This document shows positions 1-45,163 of a stretch of DNA of 64,000 nucleotides, piece by piece. The stretch covers positions 704,001 through 768,000 of the forward strand of contig CBDETK010000013.1 in NCBI GenBank assembly GCA_965242865.1. The letters are read 5' to 3'. This DNA is from Candidatus Latescibacterota bacterium (GTDB lineage: Bacteria; Latescibacterota; UBA2968; UBA8231). The translations under genes and the position numbers were made by a program. The notes beneath the pieces were generated by a model that worked only from the letters and a program-made list of their open reading frames with translations, was not told where the DNA came from and ran no database searches. Numbering within the stretch: the first letter of the stretch is position 1; every line of letters begins with the position of its first letter.

Positions 1-3000
1 CTCAGCACTTTAGCCGATGGTTCCCATAGCGATCTATGGGAGAGCTATAACTTGGTGCTGTTGCCCGATCCTGATCCAACCAACACCAATAACATGGGCC
101 TTACACCAGACATGAGCTGGTTGGGAGCGCGGATACTGTGGGGGACGCCAGTGGTTCATGGCCCCGGTGGAAACAAGAGCCCAAAGGGGCCTTATAACAG
201 AAATTACGGACCAAATAGCAAGAGCAGAGGTTGGGGGGATTTGAAGTTGTTCACCGCAAAAACGCTATACGGTGATACTTTTCACCATAGCGATTTAGAA
301 ACACACAGCTATCACCATTGGGCCATTATCGGCGACGAGACATGGAGTGGCACAATCTCTCTGAGCGGCGATGTGGTGGTCTTTCCTGGGGCGACGCTTA
401 CGATACAGGCCGGCACCACCGTTGAGTTCTCTCCGGACGATCGCCGCCAGTCGGATGATCGCCACCAGTTCAAGGAAGGTAACGACAGGCTCTCGGAGAT
501 ATTCGTGTATGGCACCTTGAAGTCCGAAGGAACCAGTAGTAGTCCAGTTGTATTTAGAGGCTCCAATGTCTCGGATGATGAGCGGCATTCTGAGTTGCGT
601 TGGGATTGGGGCGGCATCCGCATGATGGCGGGCAGTTCGGATACGGTACGCCATACTCAGGTTCGCAATGTGCCCCTCCCGTCGGTCCGTCCGACGAATC
701 TGAGGGTGGTCGTCGGTGATGGCGCGGTGACGTTGCGGTGGGAGGAGCCGTCCCCGTCCGATGCGAGTATCACCGGGTGGCAGTATCGCACCAAGCCGGA
801 GACTGCTACTACTTGGGGGGATTGGGAGGACGTGTCCGGGCGGTCAACGCACGAGGCGGTGGTGTCGTCGTTGGCGCACGGGTTGCGGCACCAATTTGAG
901 GTGTGGGCGGTCAACGCCACTGGTAGCGGACCGGCGTCGGCGGTGTCGGCGTCGTTGCTGGAGGTGGCGTTCATTGAGCCGATCGACCCGGTCAGGGCGA
1001 TACGCGCACGTTACACCCTGATCGAAAGTGGCAAGCCGGTCGTCTTCGTGCGCGGCGTGCGCGGCCAAGCCGAAGATCCGGCCCTAACGGCCAACAAGGT
1101 GCAAGTGGGGGTTCAGTTGACGCCGGCGACCGACCGGCGGGTGACCATTCCCATCACCGTAACGGCCGGTTCGGCTGAGTCCGCCGACTACGAGGTGCGC
1201 GGCCTGCCCGCTTCGGGCCGGTTGGTCTTCGGTGTGGGTCGGGCCTTAAAGGAGTTCAGGATCTGGGCCAACGCCGACGCGGACTTCGACGACGAGACGA
1301 TTCAACTTAGCTTTGGGGCGTTGCCGGCGGGGGTGCAGGTGGGGCGCCCGGCGTCGGCGATGGTGACGATATACGATACACCATCGGCTCCGATGGGCTT
1401 GGAGGCGGAAGGCGGCGATGGGCAGGTGACGCTGCGGTGGGACGATCCGGACAACAGGAGCATCGCCGGGTGGGAGTATCAGCAGCGGCGCATCAGATCG
1501 TCGTGGAGCGAGTGGCTACCTATGAAAGCCAGCAACGCTCGGACGACCGAGTATTTGGTGAAGGATCTGACCAACGGGGGGAACTACCTGTTTAAGGTGC
1601 GGGCGGTCACTACGCGGGGGTTGGGGGATGAGTCGGCATCGGTGGCGGCTCGTCCGAGTTCGTTTATTGCGGAAGCGGCCCCTGGCGCGGTGCGGCTACG
1701 CTGGGACGATCCGGGGGATGCGGCGATCGACCATTGGGAGTATCGGGTGCGTCGGGTTCCGGATAAGTGGGGTCCGTGGGAGCCGATAGCAGGCAGTGCT
1801 GCGACGACGACCGAGCATACGGTGCGGGAGTTGGACAGCGGGGTGTTGTACCGGTTCAAGGTGCGGGCGGTTTCCTCGTCGGGGGCGGCGGTGCTGACTT
1901 TGGCGGCGGTCGAGGCGACGCCGCAGGTTCCCTGTCAACTGACGGGGGCGACGGATCCGACATTTGCGGAAAACGCCCCTGGGGCGGTAGGCACGTACAC
2001 GGCCAGTGCGGGGTGTGATTCGGCGTTGTCGTGGGGGTTGGCGGGGACGGATGCGCGCTTTTTTGAGTTGAAAGGGGACGGCATGTCGCGCACCCTCGAG
2101 TTCAATAGTTCTCATAGTCCTCCCAACTTTGAGCAGCCTGCCGACGCTGGCGCGAACAACACTTACGCGGTGTCGGTGTCCATCGGCGACGCATCCGTGT
2201 CGGTGACCGTGTCGGTGACCGATGCCAACGATGCCGGTGTCATTAGTCTTTCGACGACCGCGCCGCGAGCGGAGGAATCCCTCACGGCAACGCTGTCGGA
2301 CGAAGATGGCATTGCAGAGCCGGTGTATTGGACGCCCCACTATGAGAGCACCTCGGACAGGGATGGCGTAACCGGGCCGGCGTCGGAGGCGACACAGACA
2401 TGGACGCTGACCATCCCCAGCAGCCGCGTGGGGCAGCCCCTGCGCCTCCAAGCCGACTACACGGACTCTTTTGGCGCGGCGTCGGCGACGAGTGCTTTGA
2501 CTTCGCCGGTGCGCCCGGCCTCCAACCGCGCCCCGTCGGTGTCGGGTCCGGCGGCGGTGGACATAGCCGAAAACAGTTCCGCCCCGTGGTTGTTGGGCAC
2601 TTATATCGGCCGCGACCCGGATGGCGACGAGTTGACGTGGAGCGTAACAGGCACGGATGCCAGTGCGTTTGAATTGAAGGAGCCGGCGTCGCCGGGGGCG
2701 GAGCCGTCGCGGGAACTCCATTTGGCGAATGCGGCCGATTACGAAACCCAAGATAGCTTATGACGTGTGGGTGAAGGTCTCCGACGCGACACTGTCGGAC
2801 AGCCTGCGGGTGTCGGTGTCGGTCGTCAATCAGAACGAGGATGGGTCGGTGGTGCTGACGGGGGGGTTGCCGCCGGAGGTGGGCACGGCGGTGGTGGCGG
2901 GGTTGACCGACCCAGATGGGCAGATTACGGGATCGGCTTGGCAGTGGCAGCGTCGGTTGGGCACAACGGGAGCGTGGGAAGCGATTGGGGCCGGGGTGTC

Positions 3001-4942
3001 GGGGGCTTCATCAGCGGTGTCGGGTGCGGCCTCGGCGTATCCTGAGCTATCGAGCTACACGCCGGTGTCGGGCGATGTGGGGTGGCAGTTGCAGGCGACA
3101 GTGCGCTACCGCGATGGGCACGATCCCAACACGGAACGGATGTCCGCAAGTGATCCAAGTCGGGCGGTGGTTGGTCCGCCGGTTGCGCCGTCGGAGGTGT
3201 CGTTTCGGTCGGGGTGGACGCAGGTTCGGGTGGAGTGGTCGGCGGTGGCGGCAGCGACGGGCTACGCGGTGCAAGGGCAGAGCAAACCCTTTGATGGCGG
3301 CACATGGCCTTCGACATGGACATCATTGGCGTCTGAGGTCGTCGGCCAGCGGCGGTATGTTCACCGGGGGGTGTCGCCGGATAGCCTATATCGGTATCAG
3401 GTGCGGGCGCGGGTAGGCGAGTTGGAGAGTGCGTGGTCGGCGGCGCAGCCTTTGGCGGGGGTTCAGCCTGGGGTGGGTCCGCCGACCGGGTTTACCGCCG
3501 AGGCCGGGGCGACCCAGGCGACGCTGCGGTGGACGGGGCCGGATCACGCCAGCATCACCCAGTGGCGGTATCGGGATGTGACGGCGGAGGGGGCCGATAC
3601 GGACGGGGACTGGCTGGACGCGACGGTCAGCGGTAGTGCCGCGACGGCGTGGGTGGCTACGGTAGAGGGCTTGACAGCGGGTCAAGCGTATCGGTTTCAA
3701 GTGCGGGCGGTCAATGGGGCCGGCGGTGGTCGGCCTTCGGCGGTGAGCAATACGGTAACGCCGTGGTTGGCTCGGCCCACGGGCGGTTCGGTTTCAGTGC
3801 AGGCGGGACCGGCGCTGAAGGTTGCTTGGTCATCGGTGGCGTCGGCGACCGGCTATGAGGTGGAAGGGCAGAGCAAGCCATTCGATGGCGGGTCTTGGCC
3901 ATCGGCGTGGACGACGCAACAGGCCAACGGCGCACAGCCCTATGTGCATCGAGGGGTCGATGCCGACCGCCGCTATCGCTACCGAGTGCGGGCGCGAGTG
4001 GGCGCGACGGTGAGTGCCTGGTCGGATACGCTGCCGGGGGTGGCGGGAGTGCAACTGCCACCGGGCGCGCCGATGGGCTTGACGGCCACGCCGGGCATCC
4101 GACAGGCGACGCTTCGGTGGACCGGGCCGACGCACACCAGCATCAGCGAGTGGCAGTATAAGCGGGGCCAGATTTTGGAGCCGATCACCGCGTGGGGGGG
4201 ATGGCTGTCCATGGGGACGGCGGCGACGACGCGGTCGTTTATAGTGCGGCATCCGCTGGTGGATGGGGGGTCTTATCGGTTTGAAGTGCGGGTGCGCAAC
4301 GGCGGGGGATGGTCCGCGACGACGCGGACGGATACGGTGACGTTGCCGGTGGACACCAAGGGGCGTGTGGTGCTCTCGACGACCACGCCGCGGGTCGGCG
4401 ACGACTTGATGGCGACATTGACCGACCCGGATAACCCGACGGATGTGGGGTTTACTTGGTCGTTTTCCCTGCCGGCGGGGGTGTCGGGGGCCAACGGAGC
4501 CGATCCGCCGCCCAGCGCATTGCAGTCGGAGCCGTTGCGGGTGAGCACAGTGCATTTGGGGGTGCAGATCCGGGCGCGGGTGTCCTATGCCGATGACTAT
4601 GGTCGGCAACAGGTGCAAAGCCCCAAGACATCGGCGGTGGTGGGGCCGCCGTGGGCGCCGCGGACGTTTACGGCGACGGCCGGCGATGGGCAGGTGGCGC
4701 TTTCTTGGGAGGCGCCCTTGAAAATCGGCGGCTCGGCGATCACCAGTTACCAGTACCGCTACAAGAAGACCAGCGGTAGCTGGCCGGAGAACTGGACGAG
4801 TGCCGGCACGGCGACGAGCGCGACCGTGACGGACTTGACCAACGGCACTCCTTTTAACATAGAAAACCCGAGATTCCGGTTGCTCGCAAAGGTGAGTGCT
4901 GGAACGGCTTCGGAGACAGGAGATACGTCATGCTTTTTCTAA
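1..4942 (+). pseudogene. Unit A giant secreted repeat protein (5' end outside window): beta-helix-like linker, FN3, Calx-beta-like, cadherin-like and Ig-like modules; frameshifted and 3'-truncated
   Basis: Frame 1 is open from base 1 into ORF 52..2763 and continues in ORF 2729..4942. There is an extra T at 2758-2759 (gatagcttatgac vs gatagctacgac near 39980). FN3 motifs (VTLRW...WQYR...YxFxVRAVN) and cadherin-like motifs (FAENA...PPNFEQP) are present. Homology to the other stalk copies stops at 4851, so no C-terminal domain. Confidence 0.85.
1915..4851 (+). repeat. Stalk repeat copy 1 (~3 kb cadherin/Ig/FN3 block)
   Basis: Near-identical DNA to ~8289-11290, ~16094-19068, ~26901-29890 and ~39158-42133 by direct comparison; boundaries approximate. 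Confidence 0.9.
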
Positions 4943-5859
4943 TGCTTTTTTGGCTAGGCGTTTGTGCTTCCGCCGCAATGGCTATAGCCGATGAAATCAA
5001 TGAAGTCATCACCCCCATAGAACTCAATCCGCACGACTACGTCCCTTTGGCAGTGGGAAACCGCTGGACGTACGAGCATTATTATCTCAATGAATCATAT
5101 CCCGGTGGAAGTGGCTGGTACGACTTGGAATACCTGAAGGCCATGGAGATACCTGGATATCCACATGGGAGGGAGAATCCAATACCGCCCGATTCTCTGA
5201 CCTTTGTAGAGAGAATATTGACTATTGAGATCACTCATACGGAGATGATTGACGGCTTTGAGTACTTTGTTTTTAGCGGTCCCGATTATGCTTGGCCGCC
5301 CTTACCCGATTTGTTCTGGGGAGGGAAAAAGGTACGTATATCCGATGAAGATTTCTTAGTCTTCAGATGGAATGGGCAGGATCTCCCATTATATGACTTC
5401 AGCCATCATCATTTGGACCGTTATGATGATACTTATTATGACAGTTATAGGTATACAGTCATACTTCCAGGAATTGAGGAGGTGAGTGACTTCTATCGTA
5501 AGGTGGACATCCGCGGGATGGACATCTTCTTAGCCCTTTTCTCTGGCATGGACTACTATAATTCCGGTATCTACTTCAGTCGCTATATACTCCCCAGTTA
5601 CCCGGAATTGCTCTTTTTTTGGGATCATGGAGAAACCCAGTTGGTGTTTGTACACGGATATGGGATGGGGCTGTTTAATATCGCGGTGCTACGCGAAGAG
5701 TGGGTGCCTATATTTGAGACTCTCCTTACACCGATTTCAGTGAGTATTGACGGGAAAGAAATTCCATACCCCGAACATCTACCTCCTCCTTTCCTCGACT
5801 CTTCTGTTCAGCCTACATCGTGGGGACAGTTGAAAAACTCTATACTCAGGACAAAGTAG
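4930..5859 (+). CDS. Unit B small secreted partner protein (PLAVGNxWxY family) with C-terminal SWGQLK tail
   Basis: 309-aa ORF with aggag RBS and hydrophobic signal peptide. DYVPLAVGNRWTY and HTEMIDGFEYFV...WPP...GKK motifs are shared with 11444 and 12491. Ends VQPTSWGQLKNSILRTK. Confidence 0.85.
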   Translation: MLFLMLFWLGVCASAAMAIADEINEVITPIELNPHDYVPLAVGNRWTYEHYYLNESYPGGSGWYDLEYLKAMEIPGYPHGRENPIPPDSLTFVERILTIEITHTEMIDGFEYFVFSGPDYAWPPLPDLFWGGKKVRISDEDFLVFRWNGQDLPLYDFSHHHLDRYDDTYYDSYRYTVILPGIEEVSDFYRKVDIRGMDIFLALFSGMDYYNSGIYFSRYILPSYPELLFFWDHGETQLVFVHGYGMGLFNIAVLREEWVPIFETLLTPISVSIDGKEIPYPEHLPPPFLDSSVQPTSWGQLKNSILRTK

Positions 5860-5898
5860 GTCTTTCCGATTTACACACCTTTAGAAAATGAGGATACT

Positions 5899-8800
5899 AT
5901 GATAATTCTACTGTTTTTGCTCATTAGTCTCTACTCCTCCAGCACTTGGGGCCAAGATTTCGTTTGTGGGTTTGGTCTGGCACCGGAATCCGAGAATGAT
6001 CAGGTCATGGGTGCGAGTGGCCATAATCCGGCCTTCTACCGGAGTCAAACCATCCAACCGCTGGTTCTGTTTGGAAGGTTTGATGGTGCAGCAGATCGTA
6101 CTTTAACGACACTTTGGGATCGCGAGGGCGTCGCCAATCAGCGCGCCGATTCTTTGCTATCCGTCACTCATGAAGGTAGTTTGGCGCACTATTTCTCCGA
6201 GATGTCGAATGGCACCTTGACGTTGGTCCCACCCCCCGGCGGTATTGACCTGACTTGGTATGAGGCGCAAGATGACGAGGTCTCCGATTATGTAGGATCG
6301 CCATGTGGTACTAATTGGCATGGTGGTGTGCAGCGATTTGTACGGGAAGTGATCATGGATGCCGACGCTTCTATTAACTTCAGCGATTCCATTTATGATA
6401 GAGATATGAACGGTCTGGTCGACTTGGTTATCGTGACCGTTCCACAACAGTTTGGAAGGGCGTGCGGTCCCAATGGGACGGTCTTTTACGAACACGACTT
6501 TTCCCCCCTTCTACGTATAGATGGAGTCGGCATAGAAGCTATCATCACGTCGGATGATCGGCCAAGTTTGCCTTTCATTGTAGGCGTGTTAGTGCATGAG
6601 TATGGCCACGTAATGGGCCTACCTGAGCTTTTTGACCGAGATCACCAATCCGTAAATCGGCCTCCCCGCAGACCGATAGAGCACGGAGCCGGCATCGGCC
6701 TTTGGGGCGTAATGGCTGGCGGCGAGGGATGGCCGCATGTCCCAAGTAGGTCGTCCGGCCCGAATCCCATGTCAGCGTGGTCTAGGATGGAGGTAGGGTG
6801 GCTCACGCCTAGGACCGTGGCCGCCGACACGTTGGGAGTTCAAATCCACGATGTCAATTCTTCTATGGGCGAGGTACTTGAGATTCCCGTGCCCGGTTCA
6901 AGAACGGAGTACTTTTTAGTGGTCAATCGGCAGAATACGTATAGTGAGACCCGTAGTGAGACTCAGGTGGGGAGTTACTACGACGACTTGGCTCCAGTGA
7001 GTGGTCTGGCGATCTGGCACGTTGATGAGAATGTCCAGAATTTCCCTGGAGCCCTTGATGTCAACGAAAATGAGGTCCACAAACGTGTTGATCTGGAGTG
7101 CGCTGACGGACTTTTTTTAGACCGAGGTAGGGGCAACGTGCCTAATTCTGAAATCGGAGGAGATAATCTGGACTACTGGTCAAATGATGCCACCTATAGA
7201 AGGATTCGCAATGGAAATCAAGGCGACGCGACCGATTTGTGGATCTCTGGCGCGTTCACGCCGTATAGCAACCCCTCAACAGCGGGCTACGATGGCAATA
7301 TTCAGGATGAGTTCACAGGGATCGCGGTGCGGAACATTCAGGCTCGGCCCAATGGGGTGATGCAGGCCGACATCGTCTTTCTGCCTCTGGAGCCGGCGAA
7401 CCTTCGGGCGGAAGCGGGTATCCGTCAGGTGACGCTGCGTTGGAACGCGCCAATGCCTAATGGCGGTTCAGCGATCACCGGGTATGAGTATCGTCAGAGC
7501 CTTGATGGGGGGCGCACATGGATGCCCTGGACGCCGGTGACCGGAGGATCCACGGACCGTATCCAGACAGTGGGGGAGTTGACGGCCGGTACGCTGTACA
7601 CGTTTGAGGTGCGAGCGGTCAACGCGTCGGGGTCAGGTGGGTGGGCTTCCGCCACGGCGACGCCGGTGCCGTCGGTGCCGTCGGCGTCGGTGACGGCTGG
7701 GTTTCGCCGGATTCATGTGGACTGGACGCCGGTGGCGTCGGCGACGGGCTACGATGTGCAGGTGCAGAGCAAACCCTTCGATAGGGGCCCTTGGCCGACA
7801 GCATGGTCGCCGTTGGCCACCAATACCGCCGGCCGGATCCCCAATAATAGGTCGTCGCTTCTGCGGGAGACGCACACGAGGGTGTCGCCGGATAGTTTGT
7901 ATCGGTATCAGGTGCGCTCGCGGGCGGGTGCGTCGGTGAGTGGGTGGTCGGCCCTGGTGCCGGATGCGGATGGGGTCCAGCCCGGCGTTGATGCTCCGAC
8001 GGAGTTTCAGGCGGAGGCGGGTGCTGGTCAGGTGACGCTTCGGTGGACGGGTCCGGATCACGCCAGTATTACTCAGTGGCAGTATCGGGATGTGACGGCG
8101 TCGGGGGCCGATACGCGGGGGGGTTGGCAGGACGCAGCGGTCAGCGGTAGTGCCTCAACGGAGTGGTTGGCCACGGTGGACGCCTTGACGCCGGGACAAG
8201 CCTATCAGTTTCAATTGCGGGCGGTCAATGGAGCGGGGGACGGCCAGCTGTCGGCGGTGAGCGATGCGGTGACGCCGCGGGCGCCGGTCTGCCTGCTGAC
8301 GGGGGCGATGGCTCCGACGTTTGCCGAAAACGCCACTGGAGCGGTAGGCACGTACACGGCCAGTGCCGGGTGTGGTTCGGCGTTGTCGTGGAAGTTGGAG
8401 GGGACGGATGCGAGTGCGTTTGTGGAGTTACAAGGGACGGGCGCGTCGCAGACGCTTGAGTTCAAGCGTCCTCCCAACTTTGAGCAGCCTGCCGACGATG
8501 GTGCGAACAACACCTACGCGGTATCGGTGTCCATCGGCGACGTGTCGGTGTCGGTTACCGTGTCGGTGACCGATGCCAACGATCCCGGTGTCATTGTCCT
8601 TTCGACGACCGCGCCGCGAGCGGAGGAATCCCTCACCGCGACGCTATCGGACGAAGATGGGATTGCAGAGCCGGTGTATTGGACACCCCACTATGAGAGT
8701 GCCTCGGATGGCGGCGGCGTAACCGGGCAGGCGTCGGAAGCGACGCAGACATGGACGCTGACTATCCCCAACAGCCGTGTGGGGCAGTCCCTGCGCCTCC

Positions 8801-11318: not shown

Positions 11319-11443
11319 CCAACGGCCAGTCCTATTCCTTCATTACGACCGGCCCTACGGCGAAAATTCCAGAGGAATACAAACTCAATGTTTTACCGTC
11401 TGAACACTTAGCTTCTCGGCATCCTATCTAAGGAGGAATTATC

Positions 11444-12334: not shown

Positions 12335-12394
12335 ATCCGCTTCGTGTATTGTGTGTGCTTTGCTTCGGTTCGCTAGTTTGTGCCTCCGCAGGAT
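12331..12394 (+). pseudogene. 5' stub (signal peptide only) of a giant-protein gene
   Basis: ATGA overlap with the upstream stop. MNPLRVLCVLCFGSLVCASAG matches VNPLRVLLALCFGLLVCASAG at 13354, then joins the duplicated leader. Confidence 0.75.
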
Positions 12395-23436: not shown

Positions 23437-23437
23437 G

Positions 23438-34992: not shown

Positions 34993-34993
34993 G

Positions 34994-35668
34994 ATGCGCT
35001 TTATTTTGCTGGTCTTATGGCTACTGCTCGCCCTTTGGGAGCCGGTGGCGGCTCGGACGATTCGGGTCTCAGAAAAGGAATCAGAACACGGGTACATGGC
35101 CTTGTATTGGGCTCTGATTGAGGCGGCTCCGCACGATACGCTGCTCGTCGCCGCTGGCTTGTACGAAGGAGGCAGCATCGATAAACCCCTGACGCTCATT
35201 GGCGCAGGGGCCGATAGCACCAGAGTGGCGGGTGCTTTCACGGCTCTCGGGATAGGAGCCGAAGGGGTAACCATTGAAGGATTTTATATACGGGGCCATG
35301 GGAAATGTCGTCTGACGAGTGCTATTTATTGTAATAACTGTTCCGCAACGCTCAAGCACAACATTCTCGAAGGATGTTACTCGGTGATTACTACCTCTGG
35401 TAATGCTCGACTAACCGTCAACTACAACCAACTACTAGCAGGAACCTTCGCCTTTGACGTTTTCCCCTCTGACCCTCCGAGCACTATTGACGCTCGCTTC
35501 AACTGGTGGGAGACGACGGTTGAACAGGAGATACAGGCCAAGATAGCCGCGACGATAGACGAGGTGGTGTATCGTCCTTGGCTGCAAGGTCCCGAGGAAA
35601 TCTTCCGTGATCTCCCTACCTTTATATCCCTGCTCAGTTGGGGCCAACTGAAACAGAAAGGACTGTGA
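34994..35668 (+). CDS. Beta-helix protein, array copy F2, SWGQLK tail
   Basis: Paralog, 224 aa, TGA-g-ATG junction. Confidence 0.85.
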   Translation: MRFILLVLWLLLALWEPVAARTIRVSEKESEHGYMALYWALIEAAPHDTLLVAAGLYEGGSIDKPLTLIGAGADSTRVAGAFTALGIGAEGVTIEGFYIRGHGKCRLTSAIYCNNCSATLKHNILEGCYSVITTSGNARLTVNYNQLLAGTFAFDVFPSDPPSTIDARFNWWETTVEQEIQAKIAATIDEVVYRPWLQGPEEIFRDLPTFISLLSWGQLKQKGL

Positions 35669-35669
35669 G

Positions 35670-36353
35670 ATGCGCTTTATTTTGCTGGTCTTATGGCTAC
35701 TGCTCGCCCTTTGGGAGCCGGTGGCGGCTCGGACGATTCGGGTCTCAGAAAAGGAATCAGAACATGGGTACTTTGCCTTGTATTGGGCTCTGATAGAGGC
35801 GGCTCCGCACGATACGCTGCTCGTCGCCGCTGGCTTGTACGAAGGAGGCAGCATCGATAAACCCCTGACGCTCATTGGCGCAGGGGCCGATAGCACCAGA
35901 GTGGCGGGTGCTTTCACGGCTCTCGGGATAGGAGCCGAAGGGGTAACCATTGAAGGATTTTATATACGGGGCCATGGGAAATGTCGTCTGACGAGTGCTA
36001 TTTATTGTAATAACTGTTCCGCAACGCTCAAGCACAACATTCTCGAAGGATGTTACTCGGTGATTACTACCTCTGGTAATGCTCGACTAACCGTCAACTA
36101 CAACCAACTACTAGCAGGAACCTTCGCCTTTGAGATTTTCCCCTCTGACGAATTGCGAGGCAATAGTGGTATTGAGTCACTCAATAACATGAGTTCCATT
36201 GACGCCCGCTTCAATTGGTGGGAAACGGAAAAGCAGGCCGAAATCCAAGCAAAAATAGCTAGCCCTAGAAAGGATCTAATCAACATTTCTGGCCATCTAA
36301 CCGAGAGCACCAAGAAATTAGTTATCAACCGGGAAAACAAGGAAGATAGGTGA
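35670..36353 (+). CDS. Beta-helix protein, terminal copy F3 (no WGxLK tail)
   Basis: Core matches F2 and C-terminus matches E4. The stop overlaps the GTG at 36350. Confidence 0.85.
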   Translation: MRFILLVLWLLLALWEPVAARTIRVSEKESEHGYFALYWALIEAAPHDTLLVAAGLYEGGSIDKPLTLIGAGADSTRVAGAFTALGIGAEGVTIEGFYIRGHGKCRLTSAIYCNNCSATLKHNILEGCYSVITTSGNARLTVNYNQLLAGTFAFEIFPSDELRGNSGIESLNNMSSIDARFNWWETEKQAEIQAKIASPRKDLINISGHLTESTKKLVINRENKEDR

Positions 36354-39300
36354 TTACGATGAACCGTGCTATACTCAAAACAACCGTTCTGCTTGCTCTA
36401 TTACTCGTTGGTACTGTCCATTCGGCGACCATAACCACGTCAGGTCGTAAGGTACTAATAGACGGGGAGCCTTTCTTTGCTCTTGGCGTTTACTACCAAA
36501 GGGTGGATACGTATAATACGTCTTTCACTTCATGGCAAACGCTAGCGGATCATCGTTTTAATCTACTAAATCTATCCGATCCTTTTCCTATTACGCCCAT
36601 TGATTCCCAAACGGATCCGTACGCCTTCTCTTTTAGAGGCTTTATTACGGCGGACTTACCGTGGATGCAAAACACTCACCAGTCCCCCCAGCCCCCCCGG
36701 CCCCCCCAGCCCCCTTACAACAACCCTACTAATGCACAAGCTATAATGCAGAACGCGGCGGCTCATGGTATTTACGTCATCGCAGACCAAGCTCCTTTTA
36801 CACCTGATGGTGCCAGAGCATTAAACGGAACTAACCTGAGGACTTATGGCATTGATGCCATGAGAAATGACGTCATAAATGCTACTAAGAGACAGGAATT
36901 CATTAACAATTTAGCATTGCCATCTCCTCAAGGGTGGTCTCATTTCGGTATAGATCATGACAATTTTTTTGGGTGGAACAGTTTGGACGAACCCGTATGG
37001 TTTTGGGGACCTTATGAAGGTACGCGCTATAAGGGGATGCCGATTCCCTATAACAGAAATCAAAATGTAGTACCTATGTATAATAACCTGATCTTGGATA
37101 GCTACAAAAAGATCAAGGCTGTCGATAGCACTCACGTCGTATTTATGAACTTCGCATACGCTCACGGATCCGCTACTAGTAATAGGAATACTGCCTCATG
37201 GAATGCGGATGGCGAGTTGGTCGTCGGAGGGGATAACATTGTCGATAATTATGTGGACGACTTAACACTGTATAGTGGAGCGGCTGACATTATTTCTGTG
37301 GATATTTACCCGATACATAGCTATGGAGGCCAGACGCTCGGTACTTGGCCTGATCGCTATTGCCTGTTCGATGATAGAAGCTTATCCGTTATTGGAAAAT
37401 ATCAGAAATTGCTCAATGAGCGCGTCGTAACCGATAAGCCTGTTTACCAAGTACTACAGGCGTGGACTGGTCGTATGAGGCGACCTTTGACAGCCACTGA
37501 AGTTCGATTTCAAGCGTATGATGCAATCATCAACGGGGCTGCGGGCCTACTTTGGTTTGGCTGGCATGTTCCTGAGGCATCTAGCGGGCATGATGATACT
37601 TGGGAGCGCACCAAGGTGCTCGTGCGCAACGAGTTAAGCGATCCCATTCTCTATCCCGTCTTGTCGGCGGATACGTCTCCCCTCCACAGTTCGGTCTCCG
37701 TCAATACGCCTGATATTGAATTCTTACTCAAGGAATACAATGGCCAGTCGTATCTTTTCGCGGCTAATACTTCTTCCACGACGACCCACAGCGCAGTAAT
37801 TTTTAGGGGGTTGTGTTCACAGGCGACGAGTGCTGAGGTGCTATTCGAGTCGCGCATGGTCACTTGCCGCAATGGGGAAATCCAAGACAGCTTCGATCTC
37901 TACCAAGTGCATGTGTATAAACTCGACAACTGGTCGGGAACACTGGCTCAGAATACGACTTGGAGCGGCACCGTCCGAGTCTCCGGTGATATAACGGTTG
38001 GTTCGGGTACTACACTGACATTGGAGCAGGGGACCGAGGTTCGCTTTCTGGCTAACACGGATGATACCAACGGCGGCGACGACACCGCTCGCTCGGAACT
38101 GATCGTCGAGGGCACACTCAACGCGAACGCCGGCACCATCACCTTCCGCTCGGCGAGTGCTTCTTCGTCCAATACTGATTGGTATGGCATCCGCGTGGTC
38201 ACCGGCGGTCGTGCCGATGTGTCCAACGCAACGATCCGCGATGGGATGCACTGTGTGCAGACCCATCAACTCAACTCGGTCACGCTGACCGGCCTGACCT
38301 GCGGTAATGGTGCTTCGCCGGTGCGCTTTGCCGAAAACAGCACGGACGCGGTAGCTACTTACCAAGTACCGGGAGCCTCGTCGGTTATGTGGACGCTGGG
38401 CGGCGCGGATGAGACACTCTTTACCATAAATGCTACCGGTCAGTTGAGGTTTGCTACCCCCCCGAACTTTGAGATGCCAAGTGGTAGTGGTGCGAATCGC
38501 GATAATACTTACGAAGTAACGGTGGAGGGGTATGCCGGGGAAGTCTATACGCTCTTCCCGGTGGTTGTGCAGGTGTTGAATGTGGAGGAGGAGGGGTCGG
38601 TTTCGCTGACGGGGGGGAGGCCGGAAGTGGGTCAGGTGGTGGTGGCGACCTTGACCGATCCGGATGGCGTGGTGGGGGTTCCGGTTTGGTGGTGGGAACG
38701 GGGGTCGAGTACGACGGATACGTGGACGGAGATTGCGTTGGCACATGCTGAGTCCTACAAGCCGCAGCGGGATGATATAGGGTATCAGCTACGGGCGACG
38801 GCGCATTACACCGACCGTCATGGCTCCAACAAAAGTGCGTCGGGGGCCACGAGTGCGTCGGTGGTCGGTCGGCCGAGTGCGCCGCGGGAGTTTGAGGCGG
38901 TCCCGGGCGCGGGTGCCGGGGAGGTGGTCTTGCGTTGGCAGCCGCCGGCGTCGGATGGGGGGTTGCCGATTGATGTTTATAAAGTGCTGTATTTTTCGGA
39001 GACGCAGCCGAATACGGATAAGGCTGGTTTTTCGGCGGTGTCGGGGGGTTCGTCGGCACAGGACACGACGATTAAGGGGTTGACCAACGGGACGCGGTAT
39101 GTGTTTCGGGTGGTCGCCCATAACGAAGTGGGCAACGGGGACCGGGCCGAGGCAAAGGCGACGCCGCAGGTTCCCTGTCAACTGACGGGGGCGACGGATC
39201 CAACGTTTGCAGAAAACGCCACTGGGGCGGTGGGCACGTACACGGCCAGCCCTGGGTGTGATTCGGCGTTGTCGTGGGGGTTGGCGGGGACGGACGAGAG

Positions 39301-42300
39301 CTTCTTTCGGTTGGCAGGGGAGGGCACGTCTCGGACGCTTGAGTTCAAGGATCCTCCTCCCAACTTTGAGCAGCCTGCCGACGCTGGCAAGAACAACACT
39401 TACGCGGTGTCGGTGTCCATCGGCGACGTGTCGGTGCCGGTCATCGTGTCGGTGACCGATGCCAACGATGCCGGTGTCATTAGCCTTTCGACGACCGCGC
39501 CGCGAGCGGAGGAATCCCTCACGGCAACGCTGTCGGACGAAGATGGGATTGCAGAGCCGGTGCATTGGACACCCCATTATGAGAGTGCCTCGGACGGGGA
39601 TGGCGTAACCGAGCCGGCGTCGGAGGCGACACAGACGTGGACGCTGACCATCCCCAGCAGCCGTGTGGGACAGTCCCTGCGCCTCCAAGCCGATTACACA
39701 GACTCTTTTGGTGCAGCGTCGGCGACGAGTGCTTTGACCTCGCCGGTGCGCCCGGCCTCCAACCGCGCCCCGTCGGTGTCGGGTCCGGCGTCGGTGGACA
39801 TAGCCGAAAACAGTTCCTCACCGTGGTTATTGGGCACTTATATCGGCCGCGACCCGGATGGCGACGATCTGACGTGGAGTATAACAGGTACGGATGCCAG
39901 TGCGTTTGAATTGAAGGAGCCAGCGTCGCCGGGGACGGAGCCATCGCGGGAACTCCATTTGGCGAGTGCGGCCGATTACGAAACCCAAGATAGCTACGAC
40001 GTGTGGGTAAAGGTCTCCGACGCGGCGCTGTCGGACAGCCTGCGGGTGTCGGTGTCGGTCGTCAATCAGAACGAGGATGGGTCGGTGGTGCTGACGGGGG
40101 GGCTGCCGCCGGAGGTGGGCACGGCAGTGGTGGCGGGGTTGACCGATCCGGATGGGCAGATTACGGGGGCGTCTTGGCAGTGGCAGCGTCGGTTGGGCGC
40201 GACGGGAGCATGGGAAGCGATTGGGTCCGGGGTGTCGGGGGCTTCATCGGCGGTGTCGGGTGCGGCCTCGGCGTATCCTGAGCTATCGAGTTACACGCCG
40301 GTGTCGGGCGATGTGGGGTGGCAGTTGCAGGCGACGGTGCGCTACCGCGATGGGCACGATCCCAACGCGGAACGGACGGCCGCGAGTGCGGCGAGTGCGG
40401 CGGTGTTCGGCCCTCCGGCCGCGTCGGTGACGGCTGGGTGGGGCCGTATTCGGGTAGAGTGGCCGGCGGTGGCGTCGGCGACGAGCTACGATGTGCAGGG
40501 GCAGGGCAAACCCTTTGATAGGGGCCCTTGGCCGGCGGCTTGGTCGTCATTGGCGACCAACATCACCGCTCTGCGGTATGCCCACCGGGGGGTGTCGCCG
40601 GATAGCCTGTATCGGTATCAGGTGCGCTCGCGGACAGATGCGGCGGTGAGTGAGTGGTCGGACCCGCTGCCGGATGCGGCCGGGGTCCAGCCCGGCGTTG
40701 ATGCTCCGACGGGGTTTCGGGCGGCGGCGGGGGCTGGTCAGGTGACGCTTCGGTGGACGGGTCCGGATCACGCCAGTATTACCCAGTGGCGGTATCGGGA
40801 TGTGACGGCGGAGGGGGCCGATACGGATGGGGATTGGCAGGACGCGACGGTCAGCGGCAGTGCCTCGACGGCGTGGGTGGCTACGGTAGAGGGCTTGACG
40901 GCCGGTCAAGCGTATCGGTTTCAGGTGCGGGCGGTCAATGGGGCCGGCGGCGGTCGGCCTTCGGTGGTGAGCAATACGGTCACGCCGTGGTTAGCTCGGC
41001 CCACGGGCGGTTCGGTTTCGGTGCAGGCCGGTCCGGCGCTGAAGGTTGCTTGGTCGGCGGTGGCATCGGCGACCGGCTATGAGGTGGAGGGGCAGAGCAA
41101 GCCGTATGACGGCGGGTCGTGGCCGTCGGCGTGGACGACGCAGCAGGCCAACGGCGCACAGCCCTATGTGCATCGAGGGGTCGATGCCGACCGCCGCTAT
41201 CGCTACCGAGTGCGGGCGCGGGTCGGCGAGACGGTGAGTGCCTGGTCGGATACGCTGCCGGGGGTGGCGGGAGTGCAACCGCCGCCGGGTGCGCCCACGG
41301 GCTTGACGGCCACGCCGGGCATCCGACAGGCGACGCTGACGTGGACGGGGCCGACGCACACCAGCATCCGCGAGTGGCAGTATAAGCGGGGCCAGATTTT
41401 GGAGCCGATCACCGCGTGGGGAGGGTGGCTGTCCATGGGCACGGCGGCGATGACGCGGTCGTTTATAGTGCGGCATCCGCTGGTGGATGGGGGGTCTTAT
41501 CGGTTTGAAGTGCGGGCGCGCAACGGCGGAGGATGGTCGGCGACGACGCGGACGGATACGGTGACGTTGCCGGTGGATACCAAGGGAAGTGTGGCGCTCT
41601 CGACGACCACGCCGCGGGTCGGCGACGACCTGACGGCGACGTTGACCGACCCGGATAACCCGACGGATGTGGGGTTTACTTGGTCGTTTTCCCTGCCGGC
41701 GGGGGTGTCGGGGGCCAATGGGGCCGATCCGCCGCCCAGCGCAGTGCAGTCGGAGCCGTTGCGGGTGAGCACAGTGCATTTGGGGTTGCAGATCCGGGCG
41801 CGGGTGTCCTATGCCGATGACTATGGTCGGCAGCAGGTGCAAAGTCCCAAGACGTCGGCGGTGGTGGGGCCGCCGTGGGCGCCGCGGACGTTTACGGCGA
41901 CGGCCGGCGACGGGCAGGTGGCGCTTGCTTGGGAGGTGCCCTTGAAAATCGGCGGCTCGGCGATCACCAGCTATCAATACCGCTACAAGAAGACCAGCGG
42001 CAGTTGGCCGGAGAGTTGGACGAATGCCGGCACGGCGACGAGCGCGACCGTGACGGACTTGACCAACGACACTCCGTACTCCTTTGCGGTGCGGGCGGTC
42101 AATGGCTACGGCGACGGCACGGTCGCCTCAGCGTCGGCGACGCCCCAGCCGAAAAACCGCGCCCCGGATGTATCGGGTCCGGCGTCGGTGTCGGTGGCCG
42201 AAAACAGCCCCCCATCCACGTCATTGGGCACGTACACTGCCCGCGACCCTGACGGCGACGAACTGACTTGGAACTTGACGGGGACAGATGCGAGTACGTT

Positions 42301-45163
42301 TGAGTTGAAGACGCCGACGCCGCAGGGGACGAACCCGTCGCGGACGCTGCACTTCCGCAACAAGCCCAATTACGAGACCCAGGATGACTACCAAGTCAGC
42401 GTACAGGTCTCCGACGGGTCGCTATCGGACAGCCAGTCGGTCGCGGTGTCGGTCACCGATATAAATGACGCCCCGGTGCTGAAGGGTCCGGCGTCGGTGT
42501 CGATAGCCGAAAACAGCCCCCCATCCACGTCATTGGGCACGTACCCCGCCAGTGATGAGGATGGCGACGAACTGACTTGGAACTTGACGGGGACAGATGC
42601 CAATGCGTTTGAGTTGAAGACGCCGACGCCGCAGGGGACGAACCCGTCGCGGACGCTGCACTTGCGTAGCACGCCCAATTACGAGGTCAAGAATAGCTAC
42701 ACCGTCTGGGTGCAGGTCTCCGACGCGGCCCTCTCGGACAGCCTTATGGTGTCGGTGTCGGTCACCAATGCGGACGATGCGGGCAGCGTAACCCTGTCCA
42801 CGACCCAGCCCCAAGTCGGCCAGAAGATCATTGCGACGCTCACAGACGACGATGGGCGGGTCGTGGTGACTCGGTGGGCTTGGGAGCGGTTTCCCGAACC
42901 CTTTGGCGCGACGGGCGCGTCAGGGCTGGCCACGGACGAGTACACGCCGGTGGCCGGGGAGGTCGGCCAGTATGTGCGGGTAACGGCCTATTACAACGAT
43001 GGGCACGGGGAGAACAAGCAGGCGCAGAGCGCACAAACCGCGGCGATTGTGGGGGTGCCGGGGGCCCCGGGTCTGTCGGCGTCGGCCGGCGACGGGCAGG
43101 TGGGGCTTTCTTGGACTGCGCCGACGTCCGATGGGGGGTCGAAGCTTACCGGCTATGCGTATCGCTACAAGACCGCGTCGAGCACGTGGACCCAGGCACA
43201 GGCTTGGCCGACCACGGCGAGTCTGACTGCGACGACGACGAGCCAGACCATCCGCAGTTTGACCAATGGGACGCAGTACACCTTCCAAGTGCGGGCGTAC
43301 AACAAGGTGGGAGCGGGCTCCGTGGCGGCGCAGTCGGCCACGCCCCAGTCGAGCAACCGGCCCCCCTCGGTGTCGTGTACAGTGAACTCGGTGGCCGAAA
43401 ACAGCACCCAATCGGCGGGTTCCTGCACCGCCCGCGATGCGGATGGCGACGACCTGAGTTGGAGCGTGACGGGCACGGATGCCGATTCCTTTCGGTTGAC
43501 AGGGTCGGGTTCGTCGCGGACGCTCCGTTTCCGCAGTGCGCCCAATTACGAGGCCAAGGAGCGCTACCAAGTCAGCGTGCGCGTCTCCGACGGGTCGCTG
43601 TCGGCCAGCCAAGCCCTCACCGTGCCGGTCACCGATGTCAATGAAACCCCGGAGGTGTCGTGTTCGGCGAGTTCGGTGGCCGAGAACACCACCGGCACGG
43701 CGGGTTCCTGCACCGCCCGCGACCCGGAAGGCAACACGCTGAGTTGGAGCGTGACGGGCACGGATGCCGGTTCCTTCCAATTGACAGGTACGGGCACGTC
43801 GCGCACCCTCTACTTGGGGAGTAAAGCTAATTACGAGGCCAAGAGTCGCTATCAGGTCAGTGTGCGCGTCTCCGATGGGTCGCTGTCGGATAGCGAAGCA
43901 CTCACCGTGTCGATTACCAATGCGGAGGAGGCGGGTTCGGTGGCGCTGTCTCCGGCCGTGCCGCGGGTGGGCAGGCTACTGACCGCGACGCTTACCGACC
44001 CTGATGGGGTGACAGGGTCTCCGTTGTGGGCTTGGACGCCCCTCGGCCCATCCGGGGCCGACGACGACGATGCCGCCGAGCCTGCGGCGGTGTCTGGGGC
44101 CAATGGCTCCGCCACGAGCACCTACACCCCCACCACGGCCGGCGTTCGGATGCAGGCGACTGCGTTCTATACCGACGGCCATGGCCCCAACAAACGGGCG
44201 CACGGAACGTCGGGGGCTGCCATCGACAAACCGGGGCCGCCGGGGGCCCTGTCGGCGCGGCCGGGCAACATCTACACGCGCGTAGATTTGAGTTGGACCG
44301 AGGCGGCGGCCAATGGTTCACCGATTACGGACTATCAGTATCGCTATAAGCGGAACGGCACCAGCCGGTGGTCGGGTTGGTCGAGTGCAGGGACGGGAAC
44401 CAGCTACACGGTGTCCGGCCTCACGTCCAATACGGACTACAACTTTGAGGTGCGGGCGGTCAACGCGGTGGGGAGCGGGTCGGCCGCGTCGGCTACGGGT
44501 CGGTCGCGAGCTGAGGACGAGGAAGAAGAAACCGAGGACGAGGAGGAAGAAGAAACCGAGGACGAGGAAGAAACCGAGGACGAGGAAGAAGAAACCGAGG
44601 ACGAAGAAGAAACCGAGGACGAGGAAGAAACCGAGGACGAGGAAGAAACCGAGGACGAGGAAGAAGAAACCGAGGACGAAGAAGAAACCGAGGACGAGGA
44701 AGAAACCGAGGACGAAGAGCCGGCTGTGGAAGGACAGGCCGAAGGCGAACAGACCGAAGGCGAGGGCGAGCAGACCGAAGAAGGCGAAGACGAACAGATG
44801 GCGGAGGCCCCCGCCGAAGACGAACAGACCGAAGGCGAAGAAGAGCAGACCGAAGAAGCCCCCGCGGCCAAGGTCGCTTTGCCCGACGCAACTCTGGCCG
44901 CCCGAGCGGCCCCCAACCCATTTAATCCGACCACAACCCTACACGTCCAGCTACCCGCCAGCGGCCCCGTCCGGCTGACCCTATACAACGTCGCCGGGCA
45001 AGTCGTGCATACCTTGGTGGACACCGCGTTGGAAGCGGGCTATTATACCTTCTACTGGGATGGACGAGACCAACACGGACGCCCCGTAACGTCCGGCGTG
45101 TACCTGTATCGGCTGGTAGCGGGACCGCACGTCGTCGTGGGCAAAATGGCCCTGATCCGCTGA
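36350..45163 (+). CDS. Unit F intact 2937-aa secreted protein: TIM-barrel glycoside-hydrolase-like domain + beta-helix linker + cadherin/FN3/Ig stalk + acidic linker + FlgD-Ig/T9SS-type-A-like C-terminal domain
   Basis: Signal peptide (..GTVHSA). LIDGEPFFALGVY, GWNSLDEP, ADIISVDIYP, KPVYQVLQ, AIINGAAGLLWF are barrel-type motifs. C-terminal PNPFNPTT..LYNVAGQ..WDGRD..SGVYLYRL. ATG at 36359 is an alternative start. Confidence 0.9.
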   Translation: MITMNRAILKTTVLLALLLVGTVHSATITTSGRKVLIDGEPFFALGVYYQRVDTYNTSFTSWQTLADHRFNLLNLSDPFPITPIDSQTDPYAFSFRGFITADLPWMQNTHQSPQPPRPPQPPYNNPTNAQAIMQNAAAHGIYVIADQAPFTPDGARALNGTNLRTYGIDAMRNDVINATKRQEFINNLALPSPQGWSHFGIDHDNFFGWNSLDEPVWFWGPYEGTRYKGMPIPYNRNQNVVPMYNNLILDSYKKIKAVDSTHVVFMNFAYAHGSATSNRNTASWNADGELVVGGDNIVDNYVDDLTLYSGAADIISVDIYPIHSYGGQTLGTWPDRYCLFDDRSLSVIGKYQKLLNERVVTDKPVYQVLQAWTGRMRRPLTATEVRFQAYDAIINGAAGLLWFGWHVPEASSGHDDTWERTKVLVRNELSDPILYPVLSADTSPLHSSVSVNTPDIEFLLKEYNGQSYLFAANTSSTTTHSAVIFRGLCSQATSAEVLFESRMVTCRNGEIQDSFDLYQVHVYKLDNWSGTLAQNTTWSGTVRVSGDITVGSGTTLTLEQGTEVRFLANTDDTNGGDDTARSELIVEGTLNANAGTITFRSASASSSNTDWYGIRVVTGGRADVSNATIRDGMHCVQTHQLNSVTLTGLTCGNGASPVRFAENSTDAVATYQVPGASSVMWTLGGADETLFTINATGQLRFATPPNFEMPSGSGANRDNTYEVTVEGYAGEVYTLFPVVVQVLNVEEEGSVSLTGGRPEVGQVVVATLTDPDGVVGVPVWWWERGSSTTDTWTEIALAHAESYKPQRDDIGYQLRATAHYTDRHGSNKSASGATSASVVGRPSAPREFEAVPGAGAGEVVLRWQPPASDGGLPIDVYKVLYFSETQPNTDKAGFSAVSGGSSAQDTTIKGLTNGTRYVFRVVAHNEVGNGDRAEAKATPQVPCQLTGATDPTFAENATGAVGTYTASPGCDSALSWGLAGTDESFFRLAGEGTSRTLEFKDPPPNFEQPADAGKNNTYAVSVSIGDVSVPVIVSVTDANDAGVISLSTTAPRAEESLTATLSDEDGIAEPVHWTPHYESASDGDGVTEPASEATQTWTLTIPSSRVGQSLRLQADYTDSFGAASATSALTSPVRPASNRAPSVSGPASVDIAENSSSPWLLGTYIGRDPDGDDLTWSITGTDASAFELKEPASPGTEPSRELHLASAADYETQDSYDVWVKVSDAALSDSLRVSVSVVNQNEDGSVVLTGGLPPEVGTAVVAGLTDPDGQITGASWQWQRRLGATGAWEAIGSGVSGASSAVSGAASAYPELSSYTPVSGDVGWQLQATVRYRDGHDPNAERTAASAASAAVFGPPAASVTAGWGRIRVEWPAVASATSYDVQGQGKPFDRGPWPAAWSSLATNITALRYAHRGVSPDSLYRYQVRSRTDAAVSEWSDPLPDAAGVQPGVDAPTGFRAAAGAGQVTLRWTGPDHASITQWRYRDVTAEGADTDGDWQDATVSGSASTAWVATVEGLTAGQAYRFQVRAVNGAGGGRPSVVSNTVTPWLARPTGGSVSVQAGPALKVAWSAVASATGYEVEGQSKPYDGGSWPSAWTTQQANGAQPYVHRGVDADRRYRYRVRARVGETVSAWSDTLPGVAGVQPPPGAPTGLTATPGIRQATLTWTGPTHTSIREWQYKRGQILEPITAWGGWLSMGTAAMTRSFIVRHPLVDGGSYRFEVRARNGGGWSATTRTDTVTLPVDTKGSVALSTTTPRVGDDLTATLTDPDNPTDVGFTWSFSLPAGVSGANGADPPPSAVQSEPLRVSTVHLGLQIRARVSYADDYGRQQVQSPKTSAVVGPPWAPRTFTATAGDGQVALAWEVPLKIGGSAITSYQYRYKKTSGSWPESWTNAGTATSATVTDLTNDTPYSFAVRAVNGYGDGTVASASATPQPKNRAPDVSGPASVSVAENSPPSTSLGTYTARDPDGDELTWNLTGTDASTFELKTPTPQGTNPSRTLHFRNKPNYETQDDYQVSVQVSDGSLSDSQSVAVSVTDINDAPVLKGPASVSIAENSPPSTSLGTYPASDEDGDELTWNLTGTDANAFELKTPTPQGTNPSRTLHLRSTPNYEVKNSYTVWVQVSDAALSDSLMVSVSVTNADDAGSVTLSTTQPQVGQKIIATLTDDDGRVVVTRWAWERFPEPFGATGASGLATDEYTPVAGEVGQYVRVTAYYNDGHGENKQAQSAQTAAIVGVPGAPGLSASAGDGQVGLSWTAPTSDGGSKLTGYAYRYKTASSTWTQAQAWPTTASLTATTTSQTIRSLTNGTQYTFQVRAYNKVGAGSVAAQSATPQSSNRPPSVSCTVNSVAENSTQSAGSCTARDADGDDLSWSVTGTDADSFRLTGSGSSRTLRFRSAPNYEAKERYQVSVRVSDGSLSASQALTVPVTDVNETPEVSCSASSVAENTTGTAGSCTARDPEGNTLSWSVTGTDAGSFQLTGTGTSRTLYLGSKANYEAKSRYQVSVRVSDGSLSDSEALTVSITNAEEAGSVALSPAVPRVGRLLTATLTDPDGVTGSPLWAWTPLGPSGADDDDAAEPAAVSGANGSATSTYTPTTAGVRMQATAFYTDGHGPNKRAHGTSGAAIDKPGPPGALSARPGNIYTRVDLSWTEAAANGSPITDYQYRYKRNGTSRWSGWSSAGTGTSYTVSGLTSNTDYNFEVRAVNAVGSGSAASATGRSRAEDEEEETEDEEEEETEDEEETEDEEEETEDEEETEDEEETEDEEETEDEEEETEDEEETEDEEETEDEEPAVEGQAEGEQTEGEGEQTEEGEDEQMAEAPAEDEQTEGEEEQTEEAPAAKVALPDATLAARAAPNPFNPTTTLHVQLPASGPVRLTLYNVAGQVVHTLVDTALEAGYYTFYWDGRDQHGRPVTSGVYLYRLVAGPHVVVGKMALIR
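39158..42133 (+). repeat. Stalk repeat copy 5
   Basis: Near-identical to the other stalk copies; FN3 variant shared with copy 3. Confidence 0.9.
44513..44719 (+). repeat. Coding VNTR encoding acidic linker (different unit arrangement from 31953-32138)
   Basis: Tandem gaggacga(g/a)gaa(gaa)gaaacc units. Confidence 0.95.

Follow-up and report, generated by a model that had tools for sequence, protein, structure and literature searches.

Why would a bacterium line up several giant enzyme genes, most of them lacking a C-terminal export domain, ahead of a copy that keeps it? The question is raised by a 64-kb stretch of DNA (the window; positions 704,001 to 768,000 of contig CBDETK010000013.1) from a sponge-associated Candidatus Latescibacterota bacterium, in which six units, A to F, combine small genes for secreted proteins, here called partners, with a very large gene for a catalytic head on a long stalk. 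Positions below are those of the window, coordinates prefixed C13 are those of the contig that carries it, and G000 denotes the source genome. Our answer is that the locus is probably one of two arrays of a recombining family of giant surface enzymes that are borne on stalks, leave the cell by the type IX secretion system (T9SS) and exchange cassettes. A cassette would begin with small accessory genes of a tagged class, between one and four in number, followed by a catalytic head and then by a 3-kb FN3/cadherin block that acts as portable homology for unequal crossovers, gene conversion and double crossovers. Crossovers between blocks would duplicate and delete cassettes, leave 3'-truncated, tail-less copies upstream of a single tailed gene that bears the sorting domain, and trade partner-plus-head cassettes between arrays and species.

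The first-pass annotation described six units pairing small secreted genes with large genes, and self-comparison and translation of the window agree with that description (Table 1). All genes of the six units sit on the + strand in the list of open reading frames (ORFs), and the order within a unit is the same throughout: one or more small secreted genes, then a large gene made of a head and the 3-kb block. The long gene parts carry FN3, cadherin and Calx-beta repeats in Pfam. The small genes are intact, as had been stated, each with a hydrophobic N-terminus in translation; unit A shows none inside the window, its large gene starting outside at C13:703518 with the signal-peptide part further upstream in another frame. 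Partner stop and head start are coupled, either overlapping or separated by 17-40 nt, and packing is tight, with 46-82 bp from the end of a stalk to the next cassette. A scan of 4000-23999 returned 12 promoter-like sites (7.2 expected) and 13 terminator-like sites (16 expected), using a sigma-70 consensus that may not fit this phylum. A 12.2-kb tandem duplication accounts for units E and F, its copies lying at 22037-34271 and 34272-46798; the duplicated stretch runs from the small genes through the giant gene into the CHU_C-type gene downstream, of which it takes in the first 1.6 kb. The junction of this duplication is found again at 21363/21364, which identifies unit D as an M6 peptidase head deletion-fused to the end of an earlier duplication copy; the 3' part of D, 21183-21363, consists of the final 180 bp of what is left there of a downstream-type gene.

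The units also differ in their export signals. Only E and F were said to reach an acidic linker and C-terminal tail, and this is what we find, the tail ending in a T9SS type A sorting domain (TIGR04183, cut-off 23) that scores 25 and 30.1 bits in F and 29.9 bits in E; units A-D gave no match to this model at E <= 0.001. Across the genome, 94 of the 96 open frames among the matches listed exceed the cut-off. The secretion machinery was searched for with models of PorU, SprA and GldK, and the genome encodes PorU (624 bits, cut-off 420) and SprA (482+114 bits, cut-off 200). The N-termini of B, D, E and F, read from their translations, are hydrophobic and end in an AxA-like site, as in putative Sec signal peptides.

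The heads themselves are of several kinds. The D head lies above the Pfam Peptidase_M6 (PF05547) cut-off (31.7 bits against 22) and the B head just below it (21.0 bits), while TIGR03296 matches B at 90.0, D at 93.4 and C at 38.3 bits, all under its cut-off of 110.8. The motif HEYGH is invariant among seven aligned heads, and the C head carries HAHEIGHLLGLNH, of the HExxHxxGxxH type. The head of A matched no family in Pfam or NCBIfam, nor did a 2206-aa head type found in the second array described below. For the head common to E and F, which has no sequence match in Pfam, NCBIfam or PDB, an AlphaFold model built from 37 homologs predicts a (beta/alpha)8 barrel (predicted local distance difference test 82.6); the Foldseek matches listed for the model are almost all glycoside hydrolases (GH; best E 3.7e-9), and it resembles clan GH-A (GH5, GH35, GH42, GH157 and GH164, E 1e-7 to 3.7e-9). 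Residues D213-E214 are near-invariant over the 37 homologs, and the model points to a GH-A-fold hydrolase, the nucleophile residue aside. The original assignment of M6 proteases, a HExxHxxGxxH metzincin and two barrels is thereby retained in outline, with the amendments that the M6 match of B is below the Pfam cut-off and that C also weakly matches an M6 model.

The shared part is the stalk. Five stalks in the window had been called almost identical, which they are not (89.8-93.5% identity over 2.9-3.3 kb by self-comparison); the accompanying suggestion that they recombine fared better. The nearest neighbour of each stalk copy switches along the aligned block, and seven stalk pairs share identical tracts of 934, 801, 536, 534, 440, 417 and 370 bp on a background of 3.5-8% divergence. 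When the differences were shuffled, the observed tract length was matched in 0/20000 trials for each of the seven pairs, whereas in the control pair A-B it was reached in 9116/20000, as chance would give. Most of these pairs bridge two arrays 1.7 Mb apart, and some join a tail-less with a tailed copy. Because identical tracts of 370-934 bp connect such distant arrays, we attribute them to recent gene conversion. Seven tail-less copies, in the window and the second array, retain 2.3-3.3 kb of the block, and tracts of up to 934 bp common to tail-less and full copies are as expected of stubs capable of recombination.

The second array lies at C13:2412985-2450698 on the - strand (loci L027 and L028) and holds five more units of the same grammar, with stalks 86.7-95.7% identical to those of the window. 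Three of its heads are of M6 type, one is of the C type and one is of the 2206-aa type. The C-type head is preceded by the same two small genes as unit C (96% and 86% identical), and the 2206-aa type has two small genes of its own. Between unit C and its array-2 counterpart, dS is 0.45 in the head, 0.066 in the neck and 0.052 in the partner. The stalk/partner junction is identical in two array-2 cassettes whose heads differ, and two junctions contain scars of other stalk modules. As in the window, the tail and sorting domain occur on the last gene only, and three of the tail-less copies are open from start codon to junction. The fam2 partners of array 2 (the family is described below) lie on the opposite strand, divergent from their M6 heads.

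We compared the locus with those of relatives, all Latescibacterota metagenome-assembled genomes (MAGs). In several of them a tail-less unit of partner, head and stalk lies upstream of a tailed gene, and this also holds in separately assembled complete MAG chromosomes. The mirror-image architecture of the original description, with heads, partners and stalk stubs upstream of one export-competent gene, is thus seen again both in array 2 and outside this genome. At the site syntenic with array 2, G012 has a single 3890-aa gene and G022 has other content. The most informative comparison is between G013 and G002, at a syntenic locus beside pst-like genes where the flanks match at 95.7% over 6.8 kb and 94.1% over 9.4 kb. 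The middles, of 4.66 kb and 3.58 kb respectively, are non-homologous and carry different partners and heads: a 526-aa tagged partner and an M6 head in G013, a 175-aa ORF and another HExxH head in G002. The breakpoints fall inside the upstream truncated stalk and the main stalk, whose amino acid sequences are 88% identical. Relatives can thus carry different heads on the tail, as the first-pass annotation required, since this pair differs only in the partner-plus-head cassette. Genus relatives are only ~50-56% identical to G000 in the tail, too distant for a strain-level comparison of this exact locus; a metagenome scan with the tail region found no close strain, only one weak locus with 56% identity over 36 residues. 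One observation stands apart: in G009, at L044:8253-10504, a frame for a 455-aa M6 head comes first, then a 295-aa ORF on the opposite strand, and last the remaining 2812 aa of a tailed gene, an arrangement that may represent an insertion splitting the gene.

Truncated copies upstream of an intact one could have another origin. A tandem duplication that ends inside a gene yields just such a pair, as the E/F duplication and the D deletion exemplify, and the array might then be one of decaying paralogs, role-less pseudogenes whose stalk homogeneity is a passive by-product of conversion; the lesions in A-D and the junction scars of other stalk modules would suit this. However, the units are not simple duplicates, since their heads are unrelated. 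A tail-less cassette (head X) that is orthologous between G013 and G002 has dN 0.023, dS 0.10 and dN/dS 0.23 (1021 codons compared), and in both species its frame is free of stops and frameshifts; the corresponding dN/dS values are 0.25 in the tailed gene and 0.09 in a flanking pst-like gene. Within the stalk, dN/dS is 0.17-0.44 with a mean of 0.30 (45 pairs, including tail-less against tail-less), and the ten indel events that are shared between copies are all in frame. With this dN/dS, the in-frame indels and the open frames, including the three open tail-less copies of array 2, the tail-less cassettes are not simply decaying. The truncations also lie close to one edge of the block: all seven stalk-bearing tail-less copies stop <=730 bp from its 3' edge (F coordinates 41415-42142), and two different full tails cease to be alike in the same edge region. 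Taking these points together, we consider decay an unlikely explanation.

Purifying selection on tail-less cassettes could also mean that these genes work where they stand, as Sec-exported enzymes that are periplasmic, otherwise released or carried by the tailed protein, with the partner serving as a periplasmic chaperone or inhibitor. That they keep their own start codons and signal-peptide-like N-termini, and that partner stop and head start are coupled, would be in keeping with such a role. It is nevertheless quite improbable in our judgement: the tail-less orthologs differ at their C-terminal ends, being 1176 aa and 1023 aa long and orthologous only to about codon 1017, and window units A-D are broken. 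In Porphyromonas, moreover, T9SS cargo that lacks the C-terminal domain is retained in the periplasm.

What, then, are the partners? Those of B and C belong to one family, fam2, a correction to the first description. The partners end in [ST]WGx[ILV]K plus a few residues, in fuller form (T)SVE..[ST]WGx[ILV]K plus 2-12 residues, and 58 small open frames of the genome, all for predicted signal-peptide proteins, terminate in this tag; they come from at least six families (clusters of 24, 13, 6, 4, 2 and 2 plus seven singletons). Their domains vary and include NosD-like beta-helix, CBM9-like and Cache domains, among others. The tag matches no Pfam or NCBIfam model and leads into no transmembrane segment; it may serve Latescibacterota and Gemmatimonadota as a sorting or docking signal that has yet to be described. 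A same-strand frame of >=450 aa follows 23 of the 58 tagged genes and 374 of 1948 control frames, with a Fisher p of 4e-4 that overstates the effect because paralogs are not independent.

The fam2 family comprises 246 homologs with no Pfam domain and no name, and the W-G..K of the tag is invariant or nearly so in 47 aligned sequences. Neither Pfam nor NCBIfam returned anything for the partners of B, C and D. The predicted fold of the B partner is a curved beta-sheet half-barrel, for which Foldseek found nothing at E <= 0.001; the top match in VIA was a Bacteroidales lipoprotein (4fvs) at Z 8.6, followed by LolA-like and barrel folds at Z 5-7.6, and since these values lie within the range that the tool calls common, we draw no function from the fold. 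Of 38 fam2 loci in other genomes, 8 have an M6 head immediately downstream, all of them among the 17 closest, and other fam2 genes occupy conserved contexts without any head. NosD-like sequence, the partner type of E and F, adjoins GH-head remnants in both relatives (2/2) that have this head, among 30 searched. These two sets of loci support the earlier claim that a partner travels with its head. In array 2 (L028:3909-5374 (-) and L028:1-3891 (-)), the two small partners of the 2206-aa head type are built from copies of the N-terminal ~115 residues of their head, 59% identical to the original (E 2e-37) with the signal peptide included, to which the tag is added. A partner resembled its own head in two of eight comparisons, both at this unit (a2_d), and the other six gave no match at E <= 0.01. 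A complex predicted for residues 28-309 of the B partner and residues 19-500 of the M6 head of B scored 0.00, which gives no verdict and is evidence neither way. A 738-aa homolog that joins the GH head to a beta-helix was considered as a Rosetta-stone fusion, and rejected since the helix corresponds to the E/F neck and not to the NosD-like partner.

The first-pass annotation had read the locus as a set of reverse-polarity polymorphic effectors, the upstream small genes being cognate immunity proteins or inhibitors and the tail-less units orphan cassettes. The layout does mirror Rhs/CdiA orphan arrays, intact partners stand beside damaged enzymes, the partner moves with its head, and the array-2 partner that copies the N-terminal ~115 residues of its head would suit a prodomain-like inhibitor. 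These roles do not stand up well, however. The heads, M6 metallopeptidases and a GH-A fold, are typical degradative exoenzymes, and none matches a toxin family in Pfam or NCBIfam; the partners' tag is spread over 58 proteins with binding-type domains; fam2 recurs in conserved contexts that lack a head; and up to four near-identical partner copies precede a single head. We therefore think an effector/immunity system very unlikely. Judged from sequence, the partners are thus better described as head-linked accessory genes drawn from a broad tagged class, with nothing to mark them as immunity proteins, and in the cassette-exchange interpretation they would be head-specific accessory proteins (chaperone, inhibitor or substrate-binding).

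Dispersed genes might also have been joined artificially, in assembly, through the 3-kb repeat. At least one base-level error or polymorphism is present, at 25509, the whole stalk is spanned by no independent contig, and the KLIKK loci of Tannerella, a comparable case, were misassembled in the first genome and needed re-sequencing, according to the parts of PMC4404884 used here. To set against this, the copies differ by 7-10% and each has its own head, junction scars and partners, and the same grammar recurs in the complete MAG chromosomes that were assembled separately. We compared 14401-34400 with independent public contigs from other runs, and these bridge the C neck to the stalk (15324-15930) and the E head to the neck (25083-26373) without differences. 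An artefact of this kind is extremely improbable. Coverage by run X9 is next to nil over 21738-24405 and was not used as evidence. A 3921-nt contig of the same run contains a tail-like piece, 2930 letters foreign to 14401-34400 and the E/F neck at ~97% identity (25694-26578 and 30710-30815); in a related strain, what lies ahead of this neck seems to be different.

Single bases are another matter. In this assembly, unit A is broken by one additional base at ~2753, with a further frame change near its N-terminus, upstream of the window; unit B by two additional bases in a poly-G run at ~10560; and unit C by a TAG stop at 13441 (codon 30) and a 47-bp deletion at 14506/14507 relative to its paralog. 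Unit E is interrupted at ~25509, where one A is missing in this assembly. That A is present in the contigs of both runs (2/2) that cover the site, one of them a contig of 1292 nt without any other difference, and the downstream frame of E is open across the site, so that E is either intact in at least part of the population or broken by an assembly error. The statement that only F is uninterrupted thus depends in part on a difference between assemblies. In the block as a whole there are seven frame-breaking indels, each private to one copy and three of them at the poly-G site. The poly-G run itself (10556-10567) varies over ten copies, the variants being G7, G8 and G10, one in which the run is interrupted and one with an in-frame duplication of 24 nt; this variation could be sequencing error or mark a slippage-prone site.

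If cassettes are exchanged, the tail-less copies might serve as stored variants. A crossover between an upstream and the terminal stalk is mechanistically expected, because the two are direct repeats with identical tracts of up to 934 bp; it would place another head on the tail, and the tail-less copies would form its reservoir. We go one step further only tentatively, and think it rather unlikely as formulated, in proposing a working head-switch, in which RecA-type crossovers would move stored heads and their accessory genes to the single tail and cassettes would pop out as circles that enter the other array or another cell.

Several observations weigh against cassette exchange as we have described it. 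An upstream head joined to the tail was not seen in any read or contig; the one long joint, from 15531 to 26327 in run X10, matches the array-2 paralog. The lesions of A-D (frameshift, nonsense codon, 47-bp deletion and large deletion) suit decay as well as a reservoir, and the low dN/dS among paralogs may in part predate truncation. As single-base breaks are untrustworthy in this assembly, it is uncertain which copies are intact, the terminal copy of array 2 included. Finally, the best GldK match, at 68.8 bits, is below the cut-off of 350.

The closest known case, by analogy of architecture, is that of the KLIKK proteases and potempins of Tannerella forsythia. In the portions of PMC4404884 and PMC9890683 drawn on here, the KLIKK genes encode T9SS cargo, lie in two clusters and have unrelated N-terminal catalytic domains with a near-identical common C-terminal region, each gene being preceded by a small ORF; these ORFs are mutually unrelated, and their products, the potempins, are specific inhibitors. 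The present locus resembles that description in its two clusters, its unrelated heads, a common C-terminal region with a T9SS signal and a small ORF upstream. As far as those portions go, it differs in that the common part is a 3-kb FN3/cadherin stalk plus tail and most copies lack the sorting domain, in that the partners are 220-310 aa long, carry the SWGxIK-type C-terminal tag and are in some cases present in 2-4 copies, in that at least one head has a glycoside-hydrolase fold, and in the phylum, Latescibacterota rather than Bacteroidota. Potempins are outer-membrane lipoproteins, whereas the NosD-like and C partners show no evident lipobox cysteine; the likeness described here is one of architecture. 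In the literature consulted, which is not a full survey, we found no description of tail-less cassettes, a long recombining stalk, the tag or a non-protease head.

Other systems offer partial parallels. In Rhs, CdiA and MafB loci (in part 10.1101/2025.05.08.652813, as far as the portions used here extend), one full gene likewise has partial copies next to it in which a stub of the conserved part survives, the variable module and its small cognate gene move together, and recombination in the conserved part is the proposed route. At the present locus the polarity is reversed, the variable part being N-terminal with partner and stubs upstream, the variable modules are hydrolytic enzymes instead of toxin domains, and the stub is 2.3-3.3 kb long. 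A likeness of another kind is to antigenic variation at pilE/pilS and vlsE, where incomplete, ORF-like donors also lie beside one expression-competent gene and conversion tracts are mosaic. The donors of Neisseria pilE/pilS and Borrelia vlsE lack a promoter and 5' parts and vary surface epitopes, whereas the donors here still have their start codons and are missing the export signal at the 3' end, and what varies is a whole catalytic domain with its accessory gene. In the TANFOR toxins of Bacteroidetes, the toxin is placed C-terminally. From the parts of PMC7073777 consulted, these are, like the proteins described here, large secreted multi-domain proteins with exchangeable modules from the FCB group, with a conserved N-terminus and variable toxins, the opposite polarity to this locus. 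The literature found on the T9SS with polymorphic toxins, again in partial form and short of a full survey, contained only systems of the usual polarity such as TANFOR.

The G013/G002 pair offers a clean natural example of domain-level cassette exchange between species, and tail-less cargo genes under purifying selection challenge the view that T9SS cargo without a sorting domain is dead. Should recombination between stalks indeed swap heads, it would constitute a new route by which to vary surface function and not only appearance, and would show the position of the C-terminal T9SS signal shaping the evolution of a gene family. A working head-switch, if it exists, would equip a host-associated bacterium with a repertoire of surface enzymes that is inherited, can be reversed and is combinatorial. 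Such a switch would be the counterpart of antigenic variation at the level of enzymes, founded on the position of that signal.

Table 1. Positions of the units of the array and of adjoining features in the 64-kb window
Feature	Position	Strand	Description
Unit A large gene	1-2763 / 2729-4942	+	3'-truncated, without tail; beta-helix-like neck precedes stalk block 1913-4851
Unit B partner	4930-5859	+	309 aa, fam2, signal peptide, C-terminal SWGQLK tag
Unit B large gene	5899-10695 / 10545-11318	+	M6-type head, stalk block 8296-11296, 3'-truncated
Unit C partners	11444-12334, 12491-13357	+	Two fam2 paralogs, both tagged
Unit C large gene	13354-19117 (head 13465-14508 / rest 14603-19117)	+	GTG start 13354; neck and stalk block 15793-19069; 3'-truncated
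C-to-D junction scar			~110 nt of stalk-like module
Unit D partner	19232-19897	+	221 aa, own family, tagged; paralog at C13:1540204
Unit D large gene	19914-21428	+	M6 head cut at ~21183, without stalk
Unit E small genes	21410-24121	+	Four tandem NosD-like beta-helix genes, 676-bp period; first three tagged, fourth with diverged 3' end and 4-nt overlap with head start
Unit E large gene	24118-25542 / 25554-32636	+	Predicted GH-A-fold head, beta-helix neck, stalk block 26925-29897, complete tail, acidic linker, T9SS type A domain 32382-32609
Truncated CHU_C-type downstream gene copy	32726-34444	+	Homology stops at 34271, the duplication junction
Unit F small genes	34318-36353	+	Three tandem NosD-like genes; two tagged, last overlaps head start
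Unit F large gene	36350-45163	+	Intact, 2937 aa; head (residues 1-495), beta-helix neck, FN3/cadherin stalk 39182-42142, tail, acidic linker, T9SS domain 44909-45136
Downstream gene	45253-47283	+	Intact, 676 aa, CHU_C/FlgD_ig C-terminus; 5' 1.6 kb within duplicated unit
Tag sites	5830-5859, 12300-12334, 13320-13357, 19860-19897, ends of 21410-23436 and 34318-35668		C-terminal tag of partners

The surroundings of the array deserve brief mention. Just upstream of unit A, at C13:700429-702900 (L026), lie a broken extra CHU_C-type copy and a gene resembling those for outer-membrane proteins, its product ending in LRF; genes of this kind with the LRF ending also head the G013 and G002 arrays. Pairs of genes of ~670 aa and ~850 aa, with CHU_C/FlgD_ig C-termini ending in VAY, recur at 45253-49961, 58691-63204 and L025:1868-7713, and in other parts of the genome a tagged protein of 300-340 aa, from the largest tag family, comes before such pairs. 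Between the two pairs of the window, the region 49985-57820 contains tandem FG-GAP/ASPIC-UnbV paralogs (51218-52990 and 52891-54600) with TPR proteins on either side and a PpiC-type rotamase after them. At 57906-58579, an ORF of 89 aa and a PIN-domain gene of 135 aa (PF13470, E 4e-18) overlap in an arrangement that resembles a VapBC-type toxin-antitoxin pair.

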